A program made the position numbers and the translations under genes. The notes under the pieces are model-generated. The model searched no databases, was not told where the DNA came from, and saw nothing but the letters and a program-made list of their open reading frames with translations. From an uncultured Mycoplasmatota bacterium (GTDB lineage: Bacteria > Bacillota_I > Bacilli_A > RF39 > UBA660): DNA of 64,000 nt. Location of the stretch: contig CANOWY010000003.1 in the NCBI GenBank assembly GCA_947571135.1, forward strand, positions 11,333 to 75,332. The letters are read 5' to 3'. Shown one piece after another: positions 33,624 to 49,540 of the stretch. The stretch's first letter is position 1; each line of letters begins with the position of its first letter.

Positions 33624-34562
33624 TTATACTTGTTCTCCTGATTCTATTATTTCCTCTGTTACATATATTTTACTGACTTCTTTTTTTAATCTTTTTACCA
33701 AAGTAAATTTATAAGGAATTTCTTCTATTTCTTCACGAACATTGACTAAGAATTCTTCTCTTTCCTCTTTATCTAAATTATTAAGCAAAGTAGAAAGATA
33801 AATACTTCTTAAAAAAGCAATTTGTTTTGTTCTACATAATCTTTCAGATATTAAACAATTTACTTGTTGAATAGCAAGATTAGTATTATATTCGTTTATT
33901 GTTTTCCATAACATATTTTTATCAAATACTTCTTCATAAATGATTTCTGTACTATATAATTCATAAGGAAAATGAAGTATTCTATCTTTTATATAAATTT
34001 GTTCCAATAATGTATTTAAATACGTGATTTCATAAGGAATACGTGTCACTTTTTCTTTTAATATTTTTTCACGTGGATTTTGACATGTAGAAATATTTAG
34101 AAAACGGAGACAATTTTCTAATTCTAAATCTTGAGAGATTGTATCTAAAATATAGTCTTCTTCTGAAGCATAAAATTTATTAATAGTTGATTTTTCTTGT
34201 AATAGTACTTCCCCTTCCTCATCTTTTATTGTTGAAGTAATAGGATTTTCTCTAACCAACTTTTTTAATTTTTCAGAAATTCTTAATAAAGCAAGGGATT
34301 GGTTATTTAAAACAATATAATTTTCTAATACACTATCATTGGATAATCCATAACATGTTAAAAATTTAAAATAGATGTCTTGCAAATGCGAAGCATAATC
34401 TTTTTGTAATGTTTCTAAAAGTTTTTCTTCTTTTTGGGTTAAATATTCTAAACAAGTAAATAGTGCTTCTTTTTCTGTTTTATCTTCCTCTTTTTGAATC
34501 CTACGATATAAATTATAGATTTGATGTGCATTTTCTATTAAAAATTCTATGATATTATGCAA
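33624..34562 (-). CDS. Hypothetical acidic cytoplasmic protein (312 aa, TTG start), driven by a poly-G-containing promoter
   Basis: Long ORF with no TM and no family recognised. Start codon is TTG at 34560-34562, preceded by an aggggtg RBS. A 7/8-bp hairpin plus U-run follows the stop, in the 33596-33630 area. Confidence 0.55.
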   Translation of the reverse strand: MHNIIEFLIENAHQIYNLYRRIQKEEDKTEKEALFTCLEYLTQKEEKLLETLQKDYASHLQDIYFKFLTCYGLSNDSVLENYIVLNNQSLALLRISEKLKKLVRENPITSTIKDEEGEVLLQEKSTINKFYASEEDYILDTISQDLELENCLRFLNISTCQNPREKILKEKVTRIPYEITYLNTLLEQIYIKDRILHFPYELYSTEIIYEEVFDKNMLWKTINEYNTNLAIQQVNCLISERLCRTKQIAFLRSIYLSTLLNNLDKEEREEFLVNVREEIEEIPYKFTLVKRLKKEVSKIYVTEEIIESGEQV

Positions 34563-34597: not shown

Positions 34598-34625
34598 ATT
34601 ATAACCCCCCCCCGATCGTTGTCAA
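34598..34625 (-). promoter_or_regulatory. Consensus sigma-A promoter with a G9 homopolymer in the spacer (TTGACA-acgatcGGGGGGGGGt-TATAAT); candidate phase-variable promoter
   Basis: Reverse complement of 34598-34625 reads TTGACAacgatcgggggggggtTATAAT. The spacer is 16 nt and 9 of them are G. It sits about 35 nt upstream of the TTG start of the 312-aa gene. Confidence 0.6.
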
Positions 34626-34691: not shown

Positions 34692-34730
34692 GAAAGTAGC
34701 AAATTATTCTTTAATAGTTTTGCTACTTTC
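34692..34730 (-). terminator. 12-bp perfect stem hairpin enclosing the stop codon of the 346-aa gene (terminator-like, weak U-tract)
   Basis: gaaagtagcaaa (34692-34703) pairs with tttgctactttc (34719-34730) around a 15-nt loop that contains the TAA stop. It is followed by UUUAGUU on the minus strand. Confidence 0.4.
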
Positions 34731-35744
34731 ATTTTTAAATTTCCACGGATTATCTTTTTCTCCTGTCCCTGATACTTTTAACCCAGATTTAAGAACAACA
34801 ATAGGTCGAATATAAGCGCTACTTGTAACTTCGGCATCAGATTCCATGAGTCTAATCCCTGAATATTCACTCCCATAACTATTTGAAACTTGTAGATACA
34901 AAGACACATTACGATATGTAGTGGCAGAAGTATGTTCATTTGTATAGGTACGAGTCGATAAAAAATAATTCCCTGTTTCGTTAGTAAAAACCTTATTACT
35001 GGCAAGCGTTCCTAAAGCATTTTGAAGCAAGGAAACATCTGTTTTATACGCTCTATCTCCACATCCTTGTGGCTCCAATGCCCCATCTAACCAATTTTTA
35101 TCATAAGTTCTATGATTCCAACAATTATTATTAATACCAGATAGACTATTATATATAATTAGAGACTGATTGCTATACCCTACATGTCTAGAACCATCTG
35201 TATATAAATCATTTTCATATTGTTTTGCAATATCCTGAATTGTTTGTACATAATATTTGTATCCATGTACACCAGTAAAATATATAGCAGTACTTGATAC
35301 ATATTCCGATACCATTTCGATTTTTCCATCATTTGTTTTTCTTATAACTCTCCACAAATTTAATTCGCTAGGATGAATAGTTTGATTTGTACTATAGCCT
35401 GTATAACTGTTTGGTACTGTATATGTTGTACTTTCAGGAGTCATTTCCACATAATCTCCTACTTCAACTACAGTTGTAAGTTCTACATCGTTATAATGAG
35501 GTCTAAAAACAGGGATTCTTCCCTTTAAGACATTAAATTCCTTTTTCTCTTCATAAAAAGCAAATGTTTTATAAAGTGTGATTCCACCTACTACCAGAAG
35601 TATTCCTATTATGCTTCCTACTAAGACTTTCTTTTGTTTTTGATTTTTATTAAACTTCTTAAATTCACCTGGGTTACTTTCTAATATACCCCCCCCCAGG
35701 CGTGTTCCTGAAGTTGGGAGGTTTCTTTTCTTCATTTTTTTCAT
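34704..35744 (-). CDS. Membrane-anchored surface protein of unknown function (346 aa) with a G9 tract in codons 17-19
   Basis: N-terminus MKKMKKRNLPTSGTRLGGGILESNPGEFKK (cytoplasmic), TM VLVGSIIGILLVVGGITL, then about 290 aa extracellular Tyr/Ser/Thr/Asn-rich domain with 4 Cys. Strong RBS ggaggag. C9 at 35689-35697 on the plus strand. Confidence 0.6.
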   Translation of the reverse strand: MKKMKKRNLPTSGTRLGGGILESNPGEFKKFNKNQKQKKVLVGSIIGILLVVGGITLYKTFAFYEEKKEFNVLKGRIPVFRPHYNDVELTTVVEVGDYVEMTPESTTYTVPNSYTGYSTNQTIHPSELNLWRVIRKTNDGKIEMVSEYVSSTAIYFTGVHGYKYYVQTIQDIAKQYENDLYTDGSRHVGYSNQSLIIYNSLSGINNNCWNHRTYDKNWLDGALEPQGCGDRAYKTDVSLLQNALGTLASNKVFTNETGNYFLSTRTYTNEHTSATTYRNVSLYLQVSNSYGSEYSGIRLMESDAEVTSSAYIRPIVVLKSGLKVSGTGEKDNPWKFKNESSKTIKE

Positions 35745-41164: not shown

Positions 41165-41674
41165 CTAATTACCATTTTCTTTGATTTCCTTTTGATTTAT
41201 TATCTTTACTAATTTATTGAATTCGATAAAATTCTTTTTATAAGGAACATGAATAAAAATTACTTTAGTTTGTTTTTCTGTACTATTCAAATATTTTAAA
41301 ACATGATAATAGGCATAATTACAATGAGATGTTCCTGGATTTCTACTTATTTTATAAGATATATTATTTTTCTTTAAATAATACATTAGTTCTTCTAGTG
41401 GAAAATTTGTTTCTAAAACATCCTGCATTTGTTTGCATATTATTTCTATGCTTAATTGTTTTATTAATGGCTTTTGCCCAAACATAATAACATAATCGTA
41501 TTCTTCTTTTAAAAACAACTTACCAATTTCATCATTTATTGTTGAATAATCATTTGTAAAAAGAAATCTTGAATAAACACTCGATAGCATTCCCAATAAA
41601 GTAGCCGAAGAAGTGTTTTTAAATCCTGTAAACAATATTCTATTTTGTCTCATACCAATCCTTACCATAATCAC
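41165..41674 (-). CDS. Pyroglutamyl-peptidase I (C15)-like protein, short form
   Basis: ILFTGFKNTS...GTSHCNYAYYHVL...IFIHVPY resembles the Pcp motifs (TGF, GxxxCN, FIHVP). 169 aa is shorter than typical Pcp. The N-terminus overlaps the polA 3' end. Confidence 0.4.
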   Translation of the reverse strand: MIMVRIGMRQNRILFTGFKNTSSATLLGMLSSVYSRFLFTNDYSTINDEIGKLFLKEEYDYVIMFGQKPLIKQLSIEIICKQMQDVLETNFPLEELMYYLKKNNISYKISRNPGTSHCNYAYYHVLKYLNSTEKQTKVIFIHVPYKKNFIEFNKLVKIINQKEIKENGN

Positions 41675-44225
41675 TACTTACTTTAAGGGGAACAGACAAA
41701 TGAATGGCGTTCGTCATTTTTTCCGTTACAATTTTAGTTACAATTTCTTTTTCACTTTCTAATAAATCTATAATAAGTTCGTCGTGCACTTGGATAACTA
41801 ATTTACTTTTTATATTAAGGCGTTCAAATTCTTCGTAGATTTCAATCATAGCCTTTTTAATAATATCTGCACTGGTGCCTTGAATCGGCGTATTTAGAGC
41901 AATTCTTTCTCCTGCCTGACGTACCATATAATTACTGGCATTTAACTCTTCAATGACTCTTTTTCGATTAAATAAGGTACGAACAGAGCCATTTTTATAG
42001 GCTTCAGCAACAATTTCATCCATGTAGTTTTTCACTCCTGGATAAAGTTCATAATATTTTTCAATAAATTGTTTGGCCTCTTTTTGACTTATTTCCAAGT
42101 TTTCTCCTAAACCAAAACCACTAATTCCATACACTATCCCAAAAATAACGGCTTTGGCAGTAGAACGCATTTGTTTTGTAACAGCAATTTCAGGTATACC
42201 ATGAATATCTGCAGCCACTTTTGTATGAATATCCATATTGCTATTAAAAGCATCAATTAATTCTTGGCATTTCGATATATGCGCAAGTATGCGGAGTTCT
42301 ATTTGAGAGTAATCCGCACTTAAAAAACAATCGTTAGTAGGAAGGAAGGCTTTTCTTATTTTTCTTCCTCCTTCGTCTCTTATTGGAATATTTTGAATAT
42401 TAGGTTCTACGGAAGAAAGTCTACCTGTTCTAGTTAAAGTCTGTTTAAAAATGGTATGGACTTTCCCATCCTCCTGAATAAAGTTTTCTAATCCCTCTAC
42501 ATAGATAGAATAAATTTTAGAAATATTACGATATTCTAATACTTTTTCAATAACAGGATGGCTTCCAAGCAATTTGTGCATGACTTTTACATCGGTTTTA
42601 TAGCCTTTTTGGGTCTTCACACCTCCTGGTAATCCTAATTTTAAAAATAAAATCTCTCCTAGTTGTTTGGTACTCGCTATATTAAATTCTTCTCCTACCA
42701 AATTGTATATATCATGGGATACTCGATCAATTTTAACTTTTAATTCGCATTTCATTTCCTCTAATATGGTTTTATCTACTTTTACGCCCGTAAGTTCCAT
42801 GTCCGCAAGCACTTTTAATAATGGCATTTCGATAGATTTATATAAATCATACATTTCTTCTCGTTTTAATTCTACAATAAATTTTTCATTTTCTTCTAAA
42901 ATAAATTTACTTTTTAGTAACATATCTTGCTTTACTTTCTCTAGTTCATAATTATTTTTGGCAATTGTATCTTCATATAAATCGACATCGTATCCTTCTG
43001 GTTTCATAAGGTAGGCTAAATCATCTTTAATCGTATAGTTTAAAAGATAAGATGATAACATCAAATCTTCTTCTACTTTTGGGGCTTTTAGTCCTAATCT
43101 ATGAAGGGCCACTATATTTTTCTTTTGATCGAAGGTGTATATATTTTTTTCCTTTAAAAGACTTAAAACATCTGCTATTAAATCTTTTTTTATAAAATAA
43201 GTATTGCTTTTATCTCTAATAGTCATACCCAAAATATTGCCAATATGATAATTGACATTGTCCATTTCTATATAATAGGACACCGTATCTTCTAATTTTA
43301 TCTGCTCAATACTCTCTACATCTATATAATTTTCTATAGTAGGAGAGGATTCTTTCTTATTCATTTTTTTTAAAAAGGAATAAAACTCTAATTCTTCATA
43401 TAAAGAATATAAGGCATCTCCTGTAGCAGTTTCTCCTTCGTATTTTAAGTCTTCTAGAGACTTAATCTCTAAAGGAACTTCGTTATAGATAGTGGCTATT
43501 TCCTTACTAATAAAAGCCATTTCTTTGTCCATTAACAATTTTTCTTTCATTTTTCCTTTTATATTCTCTATATTTTCATAGATTCCTTCAATTGTTTTAT
43601 ATGTGGCTAGTAAAGTTAATGCTGTTTTTTCTCCAATACCTTTTACTCCTGGAATATTATCAGAGGAATCTCCTGCTAGTGCTTTTAAATCAATCACATG
43701 AATAGGCTCAATTTTGTATTCAGCAAAAAAAGTAATTGGATTATAACGAATATGTCCTTTTTGCTTTAACAGTTTAATATCAACTTGTTCATTTATTAAT
43801 TGTAATAAATCTTTATCGCTTGAGATAATGGTTGCAATAAAATTGTCGTCTTCTACAACTTTTTTAGAAAGGGTACCAATAATGTCATCGGCTTCGAAAG
43901 GCGCAAGTTCAAAGTGTTTAATTCCCATAGCATCAAGCACTTTTCTTGCGTATGGCATTTGTTTAATTAAATCCTCTGGTGTTTCTTTTCTCCCATCTTT
44001 ATAAAAAGCATACTTTTCTGCTCTAAAATTCTTACCAATATCAAACGCTACGGCAATGTATTCTGGATTTTCCTCTTCAATTATTTTGTGCATCATAGAA
44101 ACAAATCCATACAAGGCATTCGTTGGAAATCCTTTACTATTACGCATGATCGATCCTGAGTATGCTGTTGCATAATAACTCCTAAACAATAAATTATTTC
44201 CATCTACTAATATTAACTTTTTCAT
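41640..44225 (-). CDS. polA: DNA polymerase I
   Basis: 861 aa with a 5'-3' exonuclease N-terminus (MKKLILVDGNNLLFRSYYA) and polymerase motifs (DYSQIELRILAH, KAVIFGIVYGIS, VHDELI). Confidence 0.9.
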   Translation of the reverse strand: MKKLILVDGNNLLFRSYYATAYSGSIMRNSKGFPTNALYGFVSMMHKIIEEENPEYIAVAFDIGKNFRAEKYAFYKDGRKETPEDLIKQMPYARKVLDAMGIKHFELAPFEADDIIGTLSKKVVEDDNFIATIISSDKDLLQLINEQVDIKLLKQKGHIRYNPITFFAEYKIEPIHVIDLKALAGDSSDNIPGVKGIGEKTALTLLATYKTIEGIYENIENIKGKMKEKLLMDKEMAFISKEIATIYNEVPLEIKSLEDLKYEGETATGDALYSLYEELEFYSFLKKMNKKESSPTIENYIDVESIEQIKLEDTVSYYIEMDNVNYHIGNILGMTIRDKSNTYFIKKDLIADVLSLLKEKNIYTFDQKKNIVALHRLGLKAPKVEEDLMLSSYLLNYTIKDDLAYLMKPEGYDVDLYEDTIAKNNYELEKVKQDMLLKSKFILEENEKFIVELKREEMYDLYKSIEMPLLKVLADMELTGVKVDKTILEEMKCELKVKIDRVSHDIYNLVGEEFNIASTKQLGEILFLKLGLPGGVKTQKGYKTDVKVMHKLLGSHPVIEKVLEYRNISKIYSIYVEGLENFIQEDGKVHTIFKQTLTRTGRLSSVEPNIQNIPIRDEGGRKIRKAFLPTNDCFLSADYSQIELRILAHISKCQELIDAFNSNMDIHTKVAADIHGIPEIAVTKQMRSTAKAVIFGIVYGISGFGLGENLEISQKEAKQFIEKYYELYPGVKNYMDEIVAEAYKNGSVRTLFNRKRVIEELNASNYMVRQAGERIALNTPIQGTSADIIKKAMIEIYEEFERLNIKSKLVIQVHDELIIDLLESEKEIVTKIVTEKMTNAIHLSVPLKVSSDYGKDWYETK

Positions 44226-44506
44226 TTACTTCCTCCATATATCACTATATAAATCCATTATAACATTTAATTTTCTAAATAAAAGAAAAAGAACTAGTAT
44301 TTTTAACAGGTTCTTCATACTTTACTTCTTTTATTTTAACACTAACTTCATAGGAAAAACATCTATAATCTTTAAAAACATTTTTAAAGGTATTTATTGG
44401 TATGGATCCTCATATCTAGAATATTATTGTGGTGTTATCTCTAACTTACTTTCGAGTTCTTTTTGCGCATAACCGCAACTTTTACCTATTTCTTTTATAT
44501 TTTTTT

Positions 44507-44611
44507 TCAGTACTTCTTAGATTTTCTTACCCTTTTAATGTCCCCTCCTCCCAAGTTTATTCCTGAAGTTAGGAGGGCTTTCTTTTCGTCTTCCTTCTAT
44601 CTTAAATTCAT
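44507..44611 (-). pseudogene. Degenerate 5' fragment homologous to the start of the 346-aa gene (interrupted G tract, in-frame stops)
   Basis: Minus strand reads ATGAATTTAAGATAG|AAGGAAGACGAAAAGAAAGCCCTCCTAACTTCAGGAATAAACTTGGGAGGAGGGGAC... It aligns at about 80 % nucleotide identity with 35680-35740. It encodes KKALLTSGINLGGGD versus KKRNLPTSGTRLGGGI and has a TAG at codon 5. Confidence 0.45.
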
Positions 44612-44642
44612 TATAAATTATTTTTTTTGATTTTCAATTATC

Positions 44643-44665
44643 AAAAAAGGAAGAATCTTTCTTCC
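44643..44665 (-). terminator. Intrinsic terminator after polC
   Basis: ggaagaa-tct-ttcttcc (a 7-bp stem) directly after the polC stop, followed on the minus strand by UUUUUU. Confidence 0.6.
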
Positions 44666-47600
44666 TTAAAACAAACTTAATTGACTTGTTTCTGGCATTC
44701 CTTCAAAAATACCCATGATTCGCATTTTTTCAATAGTAGATTGGTTTACTTTACCACGATTGCTAAAGTCTTCCACACTATAAAATTGTTTCTGCACTCT
44801 TTCTTCCATAATTTTAGTGGCAACTGCATCTCCAAGTCCATCCAAACTTCTAAAAGGAAGGATTAAAGCATTTTCATCTTCTACCATGACAAAATTGTTA
44901 CCATCGCTTTCTCGAATATCAATCATTTTAAAACGAACTCCTCGAGCACTTGCCTCAAGTGCAAGTTTTAGCGTTTCCAATAAAGACGCATCTTTATTGG
45001 TTGCCTCATGCCCTTTGCTTTGAATATCCAAAATTTTGGCCTTAATCGCATCATAACCTTTCACCATCGCATCAGGATCAAAATCTTGAAATCTGGTAGA
45101 AAAATAAGTGCAATAATAGACTAATGGTTTATGAACCTTATACCAGGCTATACGAAAAGCACTTGTAACATAGGCTGCAGCATGGGCTTTGGGGAACATA
45201 TATTTGATTTTTTGACAAGAAGTAATGTACCAATCTGGGATATTATACTCTTTTAAGGTATTTGCATGTTCTGCCCAAACATCAGGCTCTCTACTCGCTT
45301 TTCCTTTACGAACAAATTCCATGATTTTAAACGCCTTAATAGGCGGTACACCCTTATTCATAAGTTCCACCATGATATCATCACGACATCCTATAACATC
45401 TTTAAATGGGCATATATTGTTTTGTACCAAATCTTGTGCATTTCCAAGCCACACATCGGTTCCATGAGCAAGACCTGATATTTTTACTAGTTCGGCAAAA
45501 GTAGTCGGCTTTGCATCTTTTACTAGTTGTATCGTAAAGGGAGTACCAAACTCAGGAACACCAAGAGTCCCTGTATCACACATAATCTCTTCTTTCGTGA
45601 CACCTAAAGAATCCGTTCCTGTAAATAATGCCATCGTTTCTTTATCATCTAATGGTACTTCTGTTACATCGTCTCCAGTTAAGTCTTGAATCATACGAAG
45701 TTGGGTTGGATCTGTATGTCCCAAAATATCTAATTTTAAAACATCGGCATCTATAGCATGGTAATCAAAATGAGTAGTTCGCCACGCACTAGTAGGATCT
45801 TCTGCTGGGAACTGAAAAGGTGTAAAATCGGCTACCTCCATATAATCAGGAATAACAACGATTCCTCCTGGGTGCTGTCCAGTAGTTCTTTTAACACCTG
45901 TACAACCTTTTGCTAAACGTTCTGTTTCAATGTTACGCATTATAATGCCTTTTTCTTCACAATACCCTTTTACATACCCGTAAGCCGTTTTTTCGGCGAC
46001 AGTACCAATTGTTCCAGCACGATAAACATTATCTACTCCAAATAGTACTTTGGTATATTCATGGGCACTGGCTTGATTTAAATCAGAGAAGTTAAGATCA
46101 ATATCTGGTACCTTATCAGCATTAAATCCTAAGAATGTAGCAAAAGGAATATCATGACCATCTTTGGTCATTTTTTCTCCACACTCTGGACAATTCTTAT
46201 CTGGAAGATCAAAGCCACAAGAATACATAACACCTAAAGGCTCTCCCTTTTCATCATTAAATATACTATTCTTACATTTTGGACAACGATAATGAGCAGG
46301 CATACTATTCACTTCCGTAATTCCCATCATATTGGCTACAAATGAGGACCCAACTGATCCACGAGAACCTACTAAGAACCCCTCATCATTAGAATGCTTC
46401 ACTAACTTTTGCGCAATCAAATAAATAACATCATAGTTAGCCCCAATGATTCCACCTAGTTTTTTGAATGCTAGTTTATCCATTTCATCTTCGGTTTTCT
46501 CTTGTATATCTTCCTCTGCTAAATGCTTCTTCACCATATCTTTAACGGCTTCTTTTCCTTTTAAAATCGTCTCATGAATTAAAGCAAAAGCCTTTGCTTC
46601 ATCACTTTCTTCATTCTTACAAGCCTGAATTAATGCATCTCCATACAACTCTTTGGCAAGTCTCTCTTCAATATTTAAAGGCAAAGGACTTCCATACAAT
46701 TCATCTGCTTTGGTATAAACCAACTCTGTCATAGTTTCCACAGAATGAGGAATTTTTGGAGCAAATGGATTAGGGGTATCAATAATAACTTCAATTTCTT
46801 CCACTTTTCCAGCAATTTTATTTGGATTATCAATAATAATCTCTTTACGCGTTTCTTCATCTAAAAATGAAAAATCCTCCATCATCTCTTCTGTAGTTTT
46901 TAAATATTGATTAGGAACTTCAATTCCTTTTCTTTTTAAAGGATGCAATTTGCCATTGAATTTTTGGTTAATAATAATTTCGCGATAAATTTTATCTTCC
47001 TTTTTTAAATTATGAACATCCCCTGTTGCCACCACTGGTTTTCCGGCTTCTTTGGCAACTCTAATAATTCTTTTTAAATACTCTTCTGCCGCAGAAACAC
47101 TTGGAAATTTTGCATCTGCTCCTATCAAATGCGAAAAAGCGCTAATAGGTTGCACTTCAATGTAATCATAAAAACTCATCATGTTTACTAACTCTTCATC
47201 TTCTTTTCCAGAAGCCTTATCAAAAATTTCTCCATGAATACAGCCAGAACCAATAAGTAATCCTTCTCGTAACGCTTCTACTTCTTTTCTTGGAATTTTA
47301 GGTTGTTCATTTTTATACAAATATTTCGTATTCGCAATCGAAACAATTTTAAATAAATTTTTAAGACCTGGTCTATCTTTTGCGATTAAAGTAGCATGGA
47401 AAGGAAAAGCAAAACGAACCAAAGACTCCATATCGATATTGGCAAGTAAATCATCTGTTGTACTGATATTTTGGTCATAAAGGGCTTTTGCCATTTTGTG
47501 AAATGCAAGTGCCGTTCCTTCTGCATCATAATCCGCTCTATGGTGTTTTTCTTCATCCCAAGGAATGTCTAGTTTTTTAGTTAATGTTTGTAATTTATGA

Positions 47601-49540
47601 TTAGGCCACTCAGGATGAAGCATTCGAGCCATACTCATTGTATCTAAAACTGTCGCATTAAATTCTTTAAAATGATACTTATTACAAGCCGCTCTCATAA
47701 AAGAGATATCAAACTTTGCATTATGCGCGACCATTGGCAAATCTCCTACCCAATCTAAGAAACGTTTTGTAACATTTTCCTCTGAATCTTTTCCCGCTAA
47801 CATTTCATCCGTAATAAATGTAAGTTCTGTAATTTTTTTAGGAATGGGACGATGAGGATCAATTAACTCATCAAAACGATCTACTATTTTCCCACTCGCT
47901 ATTTTTACGGCACCAATCTCAATCATTTGGTCACTTCCCGCATAAAATCCTGTTGTTTCGGTATCAAATACAACAAATGTATCTTCCAATAAATTATAAG
48001 TACAATTATTTACAATAATATCAACATCATCGGCAACTACATTCATTTCTGCCCCATATAAAACTTTAAAACGATCCTGTTCTTCCCTCCCCTTGTTATA
48101 ATCACATACGGCATGATAAAGGTCTGGGAAGGCTTGTACACAGTTATGATCTGTTACGGCAATGGCTTTTTGCCCAATTTTAATAGCGTGTTTTACTAAA
48201 GTTTTTGCATCAATCACACCATCCATAGCACTCATCATCGTATGCGTATGTAACTCTATTCTAGGATTATCGGTTTGTTCCATTGTAATCTCATCTTTCG
48301 ATTCAATACTTTCATATTTTAAAATGGTAAGCACTAAATCTTTAGCAAAGTCATCTCGCTTTACATTCCCCTGAAAACGATACCAAGCCCCTTCTTTCAA
48401 ATCCTTAACAATACTACGAAATTCTTCTTTTTCATTAGGTCTTTTAAATACTTTCGCAAGCAAACTATTTGTTTTGTCACTAATCTTTAAAGTAAGAATA
48501 TTTATCTTTTCATGTTCCATAACGTCTTTTCCAAAAATATAGGCTTCAAGTGTAATATTGGCAATATCTCCCATAATATTATCAATCGCCGTTACATTCC
48601 CTGTAATAGGGCCTTCATTCATTGACTTAGGAGAAATTTCTTGTTTTTCAATCGTTTCTTCTTCCTTATCTAAGGACATAAAATCATTTACAGTTAGAAT
48701 TAAAGCGTTAGCATAAGAATCTTGTTTTATTCTTCCTGAAAAACGATACCAAAAGCCTTCCCTAAATTCTTCTTTTAATTTTTTAAATTCTTCTAGTTCA
48801 CTCGGTTTTTTAAAAATTTTAACAGATAATTGACTGGTTTTATCACTGATTTTTAATGTAATAATATTCACTTTCTCATGTTCCAAAGTATTCATTTCTA
48901 AAACATAACCTTCTATAATGGCTTTTCGAATAGGCTTTTTTATTGTTTCTAAAGAAGTGACTTCTCCTTCTAATAATTCTACATCTGATTGTTTTGGGCT
49001 TGAAAGAATAACAGGAATTTCTGCCGTCTTATTTTTTTCTATATCTTCCTTTACTTCTCTATTTAATTCTTCGTTTAAAATACTGGTAAGTTCGTATTCT
49101 CCTAATCCATAAGAATAAAGTTTAGACGTAATTCCTTTTGCTTCTTTTTTTACTTCTGCTTCTTCCATACGAGTACTCACCTCAAGTGTAATAATTTCAT
49201 CTTCGATTGTCACTAGAGCGTCCATTAAATTCACTAAAGATGGTCTTTTTTTCGTCAAATCTTTAATACAATCTTTTAAATACACTAAAATATCATCATG
49301 AGAAATTTCATCATACACAAAATGAATCGCACACTCTTTTTCTTGATTGATTTTATTCATAGAGGCTTTTAGAATTTCTTTGGCAATAGAAATAGGCAAT
49401 ACTGCTTGGAACTCTAAATAAACTTCAAATATATTTTTTTGTTTTAAATAAATCACTTTTTGGACACTAGCCCCTTCAAAGTCACTTTCTTTAAAGGCAT
49501 AGTTTATACTTGTAAAAAAACGCTTTAACTCTTCTGTCAT
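44666..49540 (-). CDS. polC: DNA polymerase III PolC-type (Gram-positive replicative polymerase)
   Basis: 1624 aa with OB domains, PHP, an inserted DEDDh exonuclease (FVVFDTETTG...HNAKFDISFM...HRADYDAEG), a Zn finger and the pol III alpha core. RBS aaggag. Confidence 0.95.
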   Translation of the reverse strand: MTEELKRFFTSINYAFKESDFEGASVQKVIYLKQKNIFEVYLEFQAVLPISIAKEILKASMNKINQEKECAIHFVYDEISHDDILVYLKDCIKDLTKKRPSLVNLMDALVTIEDEIITLEVSTRMEEAEVKKEAKGITSKLYSYGLGEYELTSILNEELNREVKEDIEKNKTAEIPVILSSPKQSDVELLEGEVTSLETIKKPIRKAIIEGYVLEMNTLEHEKVNIITLKISDKTSQLSVKIFKKPSELEEFKKLKEEFREGFWYRFSGRIKQDSYANALILTVNDFMSLDKEEETIEKQEISPKSMNEGPITGNVTAIDNIMGDIANITLEAYIFGKDVMEHEKINILTLKISDKTNSLLAKVFKRPNEKEEFRSIVKDLKEGAWYRFQGNVKRDDFAKDLVLTILKYESIESKDEITMEQTDNPRIELHTHTMMSAMDGVIDAKTLVKHAIKIGQKAIAVTDHNCVQAFPDLYHAVCDYNKGREEQDRFKVLYGAEMNVVADDVDIIVNNCTYNLLEDTFVVFDTETTGFYAGSDQMIEIGAVKIASGKIVDRFDELIDPHRPIPKKITELTFITDEMLAGKDSEENVTKRFLDWVGDLPMVAHNAKFDISFMRAACNKYHFKEFNATVLDTMSMARMLHPEWPNHKLQTLTKKLDIPWDEEKHHRADYDAEGTALAFHKMAKALYDQNISTTDDLLANIDMESLVRFAFPFHATLIAKDRPGLKNLFKIVSIANTKYLYKNEQPKIPRKEVEALREGLLIGSGCIHGEIFDKASGKEDEELVNMMSFYDYIEVQPISAFSHLIGADAKFPSVSAAEEYLKRIIRVAKEAGKPVVATGDVHNLKKEDKIYREIIINQKFNGKLHPLKRKGIEVPNQYLKTTEEMMEDFSFLDEETRKEIIIDNPNKIAGKVEEIEVIIDTPNPFAPKIPHSVETMTELVYTKADELYGSPLPLNIEERLAKELYGDALIQACKNEESDEAKAFALIHETILKGKEAVKDMVKKHLAEEDIQEKTEDEMDKLAFKKLGGIIGANYDVIYLIAQKLVKHSNDEGFLVGSRGSVGSSFVANMMGITEVNSMPAHYRCPKCKNSIFNDEKGEPLGVMYSCGFDLPDKNCPECGEKMTKDGHDIPFATFLGFNADKVPDIDLNFSDLNQASAHEYTKVLFGVDNVYRAGTIGTVAEKTAYGYVKGYCEEKGIIMRNIETERLAKGCTGVKRTTGQHPGGIVVIPDYMEVADFTPFQFPAEDPTSAWRTTHFDYHAIDADVLKLDILGHTDPTQLRMIQDLTGDDVTEVPLDDKETMALFTGTDSLGVTKEEIMCDTGTLGVPEFGTPFTIQLVKDAKPTTFAELVKISGLAHGTDVWLGNAQDLVQNNICPFKDVIGCRDDIMVELMNKGVPPIKAFKIMEFVRKGKASREPDVWAEHANTLKEYNIPDWYITSCQKIKYMFPKAHAAAYVTSAFRIAWYKVHKPLVYYCTYFSTRFQDFDPDAMVKGYDAIKAKILDIQSKGHEATNKDASLLETLKLALEASARGVRFKMIDIRESDGNNFVMVEDENALILPFRSLDGLGDAVATKIMEERVQKQFYSVEDFSNRGKVNQSTIEKMRIMGIFEGMPETSQLSLF

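Follow-up and report, generated by a model that had tools for sequence, protein, structure and literature searches.

A probable gene remnant between polC and polA in an uncultured member of the Bacilli, and the putative poly-G surface-protein family to which it points

Contingency loci based on simple sequence repeats (SSRs) have been studied mainly in the Proteobacteria, the Campylobacterota and the Mollicutes. In the poly-G genes of Campylobacter jejuni and Helicobacter, and in the poly-C/G genes of Neisseria and Haemophilus, the length of a tract early in the coding region sets the reading frame. In such homopolymeric-tract genes the tract length varies between samples, most paralogues are OFF, some interrupted tracts are fixed ON, and decayed family members are common. 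One report describes autotransporter genes of Campylobacter that "exhibit lineage-associated distribution and decay" (PMC7168839). A different organization is found in the multigene families of Mycoplasma (Vlp, Vsp and Vpma), the bodies of which are divergent; in vpma and vsp the 5' untranslated region and the N-terminal coding region are conserved (PMC2268961).

The gene family considered here shares with the homopolymeric-tract genes an early coding tract of G9 or G10 whose length sets the frame, lengths that differ between samples, a majority of paralogues in the OFF state and a few interrupted tracts fixed ON. It differs from the contingency genes of the Proteobacteria and Campylobacterota in its hosts, which are spore-forming low-GC gut Bacilli (GerM, SpoIIIAH), and from the homopolymeric-tract genes in that the tract is embedded in a 5' cassette (promoter, leader and N-terminus) whose nucleotide sequence is conserved both among paralogues and between species. 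An earlier note on this DNA, made from the sequence alone, likened the genes to the variable surface proteins of Mycoplasma, and as an analogy this is fair: both are multigene families with a conserved 5' UTR and N-terminus and with divergent bodies. However, the family is not a member of the Vsp, Vpma or Vlp families, as it lacks a lipobox, a recombinase and inversion sites. The 346-aa protein that represents it has no Cys in residues 1-70 and a predicted transmembrane (TM) helix (35-68) in place of a lipobox, the ORFs scanned between 30.7 and 52.8 kb include no recombinase, no inversion sites were found, and the copies are direct instead of inverted. Switching would depend on a G tract in the coding region, and not on promoter inversion or on a poly-A tract in the promoter. 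A literature search returned no description of the gene family, which adds a case from the gut Firmicutes to the SSR-based contingency loci.

The window, the whole stretch of 64 kb that was analysed, has a GC content of 29.2% and belongs to an uncultured, spore-forming low-GC member of the Bacilli. Domains of PolC, PolA, DnaE, GerM and SpoIIIAH were detected in it with Pfam, and its closest database relatives are metagenome-assembled genomes (MAGs) named 'Bacilli bacterium' or 'Tenericutes'. Both polymerase genes, polC (44666..49540) and polA (41640..44225), were assigned with Pfam; they lie on the minus strand, as does the 440-nt spacer between them, which is wholly occupied by degraded gene sequence. 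PolC itself is 1624 aa long in the window and 1505 aa in the relative L032. Rfam at the gathering threshold detected only a tRNA in the whole window, and with E-values up to 10 it gave nothing relevant on the polC-polA spacer, the best matches having E > 1. The source of comparison is an intact family gene of 346 codons (34704..35744, minus strand), with an uninterrupted G9 tract at 35689-35697 (minus strand); its product is predicted to consist of an N-terminal tail, a TM helix and an extracellular domain of the alpha/beta type.

The 5' end of this gene recurs in the spacer. In the 64 kb the degenerate core CCTCCYAACTTCAGGAAYA (19 nt) has exactly two occurrences, one at 35703-35721 and one at 44558-44576, where 0.05 are expected from shuffles. 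Both copies are on the minus strand, which bears out the orientation proposed in the earlier note; they are direct repeats, 8.8 kb apart, and the longest exact word that they have in common is 11 nt. The similarity had been put at 60-70 nt with about 80% identity. An ungapped core of ~55 nt around CCTCC..AACTTCAGGAA..TGGG is indeed close to ~80% identical, but the similarity as a whole is longer: a sensitive blastn search of the spacer against the 5' region of the 346-aa gene yields one alignment of 161 columns with 68% identity including gaps (E = 2e-12). The Smith-Waterman score of the relic against this gene is 34, compared with 14.7 +/- 2.3 in 1000 dinucleotide shuffles (maximum 25). Positions 44511-44667 (minus strand) correspond to the 346-aa gene from its promoter through the leader into the first ~33-35 codons; the similarity sets in at the -35/-10 region (44637-44610) and extends as far as approximately codon 33, near 44511 (..TAAGAAGT..). 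In an alignment of 16 copies the best match of the relic is the copy of the relative L021 (80.8% over 125 columns); the other copies reach 49-66%, and the window's own 346-aa gene 56% over the aligned columns.

Within this segment the remnant of the leader and first codons extends over 44511..44600 (minus strand), as delimited by the alignments to L021 and to the 346-aa gene, with the core CCTCCTAACTTCAGGAA at 44560-44576. The interrupted G tract GGGAGGAGGGG at 44542-44552 (minus strand) is the counterpart of the G9 or G10 of the intact family genes. Upstream lies the relic promoter, TTGAAA-16 nt-TATAAT (44610..44637, minus strand), which matches 11 of the 12 consensus positions and lines up with the 346-aa gene and the MAG copies at their -10 regions. 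Compared with the closer relative L021, the similarity takes in a hairpin as well: a terminator scan located a hairpin and T-run at 44647..44667 (minus strand) that starts at the stop codon of polC (AAGGAAGAAAGATTCTTCCTT). This hairpin is the terminator of polC in the window, yet it is part of the repeated cassette.

The earlier note had inferred that paralogous genes exist which share a conserved 5' leader and N-terminus, and such a family was found. When 185,579 species genomes were scanned for exact matches to the pattern CTCCNAACTTCAGRAANNNNNNTGGG, 17 loci were obtained, the window's own species not being among them, so that the copy counts are those of other species. Fourteen of the 17 are genuine copies in four related MAGs (with 3, 4, 6 and 2 copies); the remaining three, from unrelated phyla and with dissimilar flanks, were rejected as chance matches. 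The alignment of 16 copies confirms that the 5' UTR and the N-terminal coding region are conserved among the paralogues. In 12 of the 14 copies the layout starts with a T-rich stretch, a -35-like TTGaAA, TATAAT or TATACT, ..ataGAtGGAGGaaa.. and ATG AAA AAg.., and ends with CCTCCCAACTTCAGGAA, five or six variable bases and then the G tract, after which, where the contig extends, TAC ATT AGA AAG TAA AAG AAA CCC AGG is found. The order TATAAT/TATACT..GGAGG..ATG..CCTCCCAACTTCAGGAA..G tract is present in all 12 copies that have their upstream flank on the contig; in L011 and L014 the contig breaks off upstream before the whole promoter, or the greater part of it, is reached. Roughly half of the copies are located at or near contig ends, as expected of repeats that break assemblies, an effect that SSR loci of this type have on metagenome assemblies. 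Copies of the cassette inside one MAG have near-identical 5' regions. The 784-aa gene of L022 carries the 5' cassette without the 346-type C-terminal domain, and a distant subfamily, P0006, is without the LPTSG codons but has kept a G10 tract.

One of the genomes concerned, GCA_964537805.1 (L013/L003/L029), is titled 'uncultured Muribaculaceae bacterium'. It contains Spo0A, six copies of the cassette and a polA that is 87% identical to that of the window; it looks as if the taxonomic label is wrong or the bin mixed.

The sequence of the 346-aa gene marks it as a probable poly-G phase-variable contingency gene, in which slippage at the G9 tract (codons 17-19) would shift the frame. G/C runs of at least 6 are found only twice in 64 kb at 29% GC, both at the locus of this gene. 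When one G is added or removed in silico, every complete gene of the family toggles between a stub of 19-24 aa and its full length. Ten MAG copies have G10 and are OFF (ON at G9 or G12), the L017 copy has G9 and is OFF (ON at G10 or G7), and two MAG copies end at a contig edge inside the tract. Interrupted tracts that are fixed ON were observed twice, GGGAGAAGGG (512 aa) and GGGGAGGGGG (P0002, 331 aa). The question raised earlier, whether full-length paralogues elsewhere carry G tracts, can thus be answered affirmatively: 11 of the 13 complete copies (12 from MAGs plus the window's gene) have an uninterrupted G9 or G10, and the P0006 genes have G10 besides. It is plausible that the tract is kept by selection in the family. 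The earlier proposal that the G9 is a derived state has to be reversed; since the uninterrupted tract is the family norm, it is the interrupted tract of the relic that is derived. All 11 uninterrupted copies in the MAG assemblies are in the OFF frame, which leaves room for expression by transcriptional slippage.

Length polymorphism was observed for the window's own gene as well. In five assemblies from different samples its 5' ends are identical except for the tract, which is G9 (ON) in the window, L001 and L002 and, in the OFF state, G8 in L033 and G7 in L034 (called as a 246-aa ORF, P0001). This is the pattern that slipped-strand phase variation predicts, although the contigs concerned have a low coverage (~1.7-5x according to the contig names), at which homopolymer miscalls are possible. 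A second G9 tract is found nearby at 34605-34613 (minus strand), in the promoter spacer TTGACA-acgatc-G9-T-TATAAT of a 312-aa ORF (33624..34562); with G9 the spacer is 16 nt long, with G10 it is 17 nt long. The window, L001 and L002 have G9 in this promoter tract. G10 is found in L033 and L034, the same samples in which the 346-aa gene is OFF (G8 and G7). The two switches may be coupled, on the strength of five assemblies of low coverage.

The 346-aa protein has 146 homologues in a large protein database, annotated at most with an occasional pilin-type N-terminus, and it has no match in Pfam, NCBIfam or PHROG. An AlphaFold model built from 84 homologues (pLDDT 84.5, and above 90 across most of residues 90-340) predicts a disordered, basic N-terminal tail followed by the TM helix (residues 35-68) and a domain of the alpha/beta type. 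Foldseek gave no significant match of this model in the PDB and a weak match in BFVD to a phage DUF6273 protein (E = 4e-3), and a profile search against the PDB sequences returned nothing. The predicted extracellular domain may represent an uncharacterised fold family. Based on the modelled topology, membrane-anchored surface proteins are a reasonable reading of the family.

The copy in the spacer carries several disabling lesions. Its alignment with L021 contains a clean gap of 16-17 nt near 44596/44597, exactly over GATGGAGGAAAAAAAT(G), the ribosome-binding site and start codon; L021 has GATGGAGGAAAAAAATG precisely at this position. A Shine-Dalgarno (SD) sequence and an ATG are present in all 14 MAG copies and absent before the relic copy. 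The in-frame TAG at codon 5 that was taken earlier as a sign of decay is meaningless, because it was counted from an ATG at 44611-44609 that overlaps the -10 box TATAAT (44615-44610) and is rejected as the ancestral start, the real SD and ATG having been deleted. The other signs that had been put forward hold. The G tract at 44542-44552 is interrupted, by two G-to-A changes, where the intact gene has a pure G9. A downstream gene body is lacking as well: going downstream the family homology ends at ~44511, and tblastn detected no encoded family C-terminal domain near the relic.

Directly behind this point lies a second relic, which the earlier note had missed: a small XRE-type HTH pseudogene (44331..44510, minus strand) that has no start codon and contains in-frame TAA codons at 44424-44426 and 44394-44396. 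A tblastn search of the window with the 62-aa HTH protein of L017, which itself scores as Pfam HTH_3 (XRE type), gives a single match, 44501..44358 (48% identity, gapless over 48 aa, E = 2e-10), which includes both TAA codons; with the stops repaired, the pseudogene scores above the Pfam HTH_3 cut-off. In L028, the closest relative found (polA 92% identical), an intact HTH gene of 65-84 aa lies directly upstream of polA, and the two TAA codons of the window align with a Q and a K of this gene. It is followed by a terminator-like hairpin and a TGTTATAAT promoter, both as in the window. There, the hairpin GAAGAAC...GUUCUU with its U-run occupies 44277..44336 (minus strand; -13.6 kcal/mol, z = -2.7; conserved in L028), and polA has its own extended -10 promoter TGTTATAAT at 44257..44265 (minus strand), from which point on the window, L028 and L027 are homologous. 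The remaining spacer sequence matches the DNA immediately behind cassette-type genes in L017 (twice), L019 and L022. A search of metagenome contigs with a 21-mer of the junction between the HTH relic and polA gave one unrelated chance match only.

Small XRE/HTH_3 genes (62-84 aa) directly follow cassette-type genes in L017 (twice), L019, L010 and L022. The small HTH ORFs identified in the relatives are L017:2863-3051, L017:468-644, L019:2069-2245, L010:4974-5159, L022:4327-4479 and L028:77-271. The window's intact gene, P0002 and P0006 are without a following XRE/HTH_3 gene, and L017 has a further HTH ORF, divergently oriented, before its second surface-protein gene.

The gene order around the two polymerase genes was pieced together from two relatives, L017 for the polC side only and L028 for the polA side only; polC, a family gene, an HTH gene and polA are found together on one contig in none of the relatives compared. 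In L017 (the mouse-gut MAG MGBC143693) polC has the same 3' end as in the window (..GMPETSQLSLF*). Next come an intact cassette gene, which has the 346-type C-terminal domain, and an HTH gene, and then another surface-protein gene with another HTH gene behind it; polA is absent within the 460 nt after this last gene. The L028 contig begins 19 nt upstream of the HTH gene. L021 was considered as a polC-adjacent orthologue in view of its matching hairpin and was rejected, since what lies upstream of it is a gene for a GH25 enzyme and an ORF of 115 aa. In another relative, whose polA is 81% identical, polC is separated from polA by a 248-aa gene on the opposite strand and then a LysR gene, and in two other relatives polA is not adjacent to polC. 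L027 and L028 encode an identical PolA protein but have different upstream genes, the C-terminus of a protein of 193+ aa (L027:2-583) versus the HTH gene (L028:20-274). This difference is a strain-level replacement upstream of polA, and the polC-polA interval is a variable spot. As the homology of L027 to the window begins only at the polA promoter, the region upstream of it appears dispensable for polA.

Taken together, the element in the spacer is very probably a dead remnant of a module consisting of a family gene and an HTH gene, in other words an ordinary pseudogene. The module would have comprised, in this order, a hairpin, a promoter, a leader, a poly-G surface-protein gene and a small XRE-type HTH gene, and sequence comparison suggests that it was once located between polC and polA. 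A deletion of 16-17 nt took away the ribosome-binding site and start codon, two G-to-A changes interrupted the G tract, and the gene body went with a deletion of at least ~0.9 kb, from about codon 35 to the start of the HTH gene; the HTH gene itself lost its start codon and acquired two nonsense codons. The succession of these lesions is conjectural, as is the present lack of function. The features are those of bacterial pseudogenes in general: significant homology to a functional gene, lost translation signals, truncation, nonsense codons and intact counterparts in relatives, here in L017 on the polC side and in L028 on the polA side. Nothing essential sets the relic apart from these, apart from the setting, in which two adjacent genes have decayed together into a spacer between essential polymerase genes. 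What counts against a dead remnant is that the promoter hexamers are still near the consensus (11/12). Transcription from the relic promoter, or some use of the transcript, is possible; at most, a non-coding RNA of ~300 nt would be expected, reaching to the hairpin before the polA promoter. The relic itself is of little importance, but it explains the unusually long polC-polA spacer and cautions against taking such repeats as regulatory elements. Its main interest is that it points to an unannotated, possibly modular family of poly-G phase-variable surface proteins in uncultured gut Bacilli.

The earlier note had kept open a role of the conserved segment as a cis-regulatory or recombination element, and neither is favoured by the short shared word of 11 nt, the separate promoter of polA or the upstream DNA that differs between close strains. 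As a functional cis-regulatory RNA or sRNA, the leader would fold into a CCCUCCU/AGGAGGG hairpin that controls polA or titrates a factor acting on the mRNAs of the family. A near-consensus promoter is indeed in place (44637-44610), the anti-SD:SD hairpin described earlier does exist (-16.2 kcal/mol), and the spacer sequence is 100% identical in three samples. However, 11 of 200 shuffles gave folds of equal stability (z = -1.7), so that a special stability of the hairpin did not stand; in the 5' regions SD/anti-SD folding has z-scores of -0.6 to -2.0 with invariant pairs and was set aside as evidence, and the complementarity stems from the Leu-Pro codons CTC CCA beside the G run. The three samples appear to represent the same strain, in which case their identity is uninformative on constraint. 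Given also the terminator-like hairpin between the relic and polA, polA's own TGTTATAAT promoter as the starting point of the L027 homology, the marks of decay (the deleted SD/ATG and the stops in the fused HTH gene) and the lack of any Rfam match, we consider a regulatory RNA very improbable.

It is equally hard to regard the segment as a recombination substrate, that is, a silent partial copy that donates sequence to the expressed 5' end by pilS-type conversion or in the manner of the Mycoplasma vrs, and that could lock or unlock the G tract. Such a role would fit its orientation, the same as that of the intact gene 8.8 kb away, the fact that the difference is located precisely in the G tract, and the near-identical 5' regions within one MAG, which suggest concerted evolution. 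An exact word of 11 nt and an identity of 68% with gaps are, however, too little for efficient RecA-mediated exchange, and if the direct repeats were to cross over, polA, fpg, rpmF, yceD and further genes would be lost. Moreover, the 15 ORFs scanned (30.7-52.8 kb) include no recombinase, and the relic resembles the L021 copy (81%) more closely than the family gene of the window (56%), with no sign of recent conversion; we therefore judge this role very improbable. A fortuitous similarity could be imagined between purine-rich, RBS-like stretches in AT-rich DNA, the GC content being 29% and both segments being A-rich with GGAGG-like words. Yet the observed score of 34 is never reached by the shuffles (maximum 25), the core pattern is expected 0.05 times, and other genomes contain the segment together with its flanks in 14 copies, which leaves chance a negligible probability.

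A wider reading goes beyond the dead remnant favoured here, and we put it forward as a doubtful possibility only: hairpin, promoter, leader and poly-G N-terminus (plus the XRE gene in a subfamily) might form a portable frame for expression and phase variation that is transferred or swapped among loci in uncultured spore-forming gut Bacilli and combined with differing bodies, the polC-proximal site being a hot spot of turnover and the relic the footprint of a replacement. It is prompted by the hairpin that the relic and L021 have in common, with homology starting at the stop codons of unrelated genes, by the bodies between cassette and HTH gene, which differ (as in the 784-aa L022 gene), by L027 and L028, with the same PolA protein and different upstream genes, and by the OFF frame of all 11 uninterrupted MAG copies. 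The terminator hairpin before the relic recurs with one mismatch before the intact L021 cassette (L021:2576-2596), and the hairpin homology starts at the TAA stop of the upstream gene, which is polC in the window and a secreted-looking 115-aa ORF in L021. In L017 and L032 polC has different terminators, without the window's hairpin. These observations are a hint that the upstream hairpin belongs to the cassette and moves together with it.

Finally, the P0006 subfamily shows a variant arrangement of the tract. In L004/L005:9979-10030 the G10 directly follows an ATG (aATGGGGGGGGGG). The annotated ORF begins at this ATG, before the G10, and an upstream ATG that is preceded by an SD sequence is out of frame with it, so that two alternative starts in different frames meet at a single tract.
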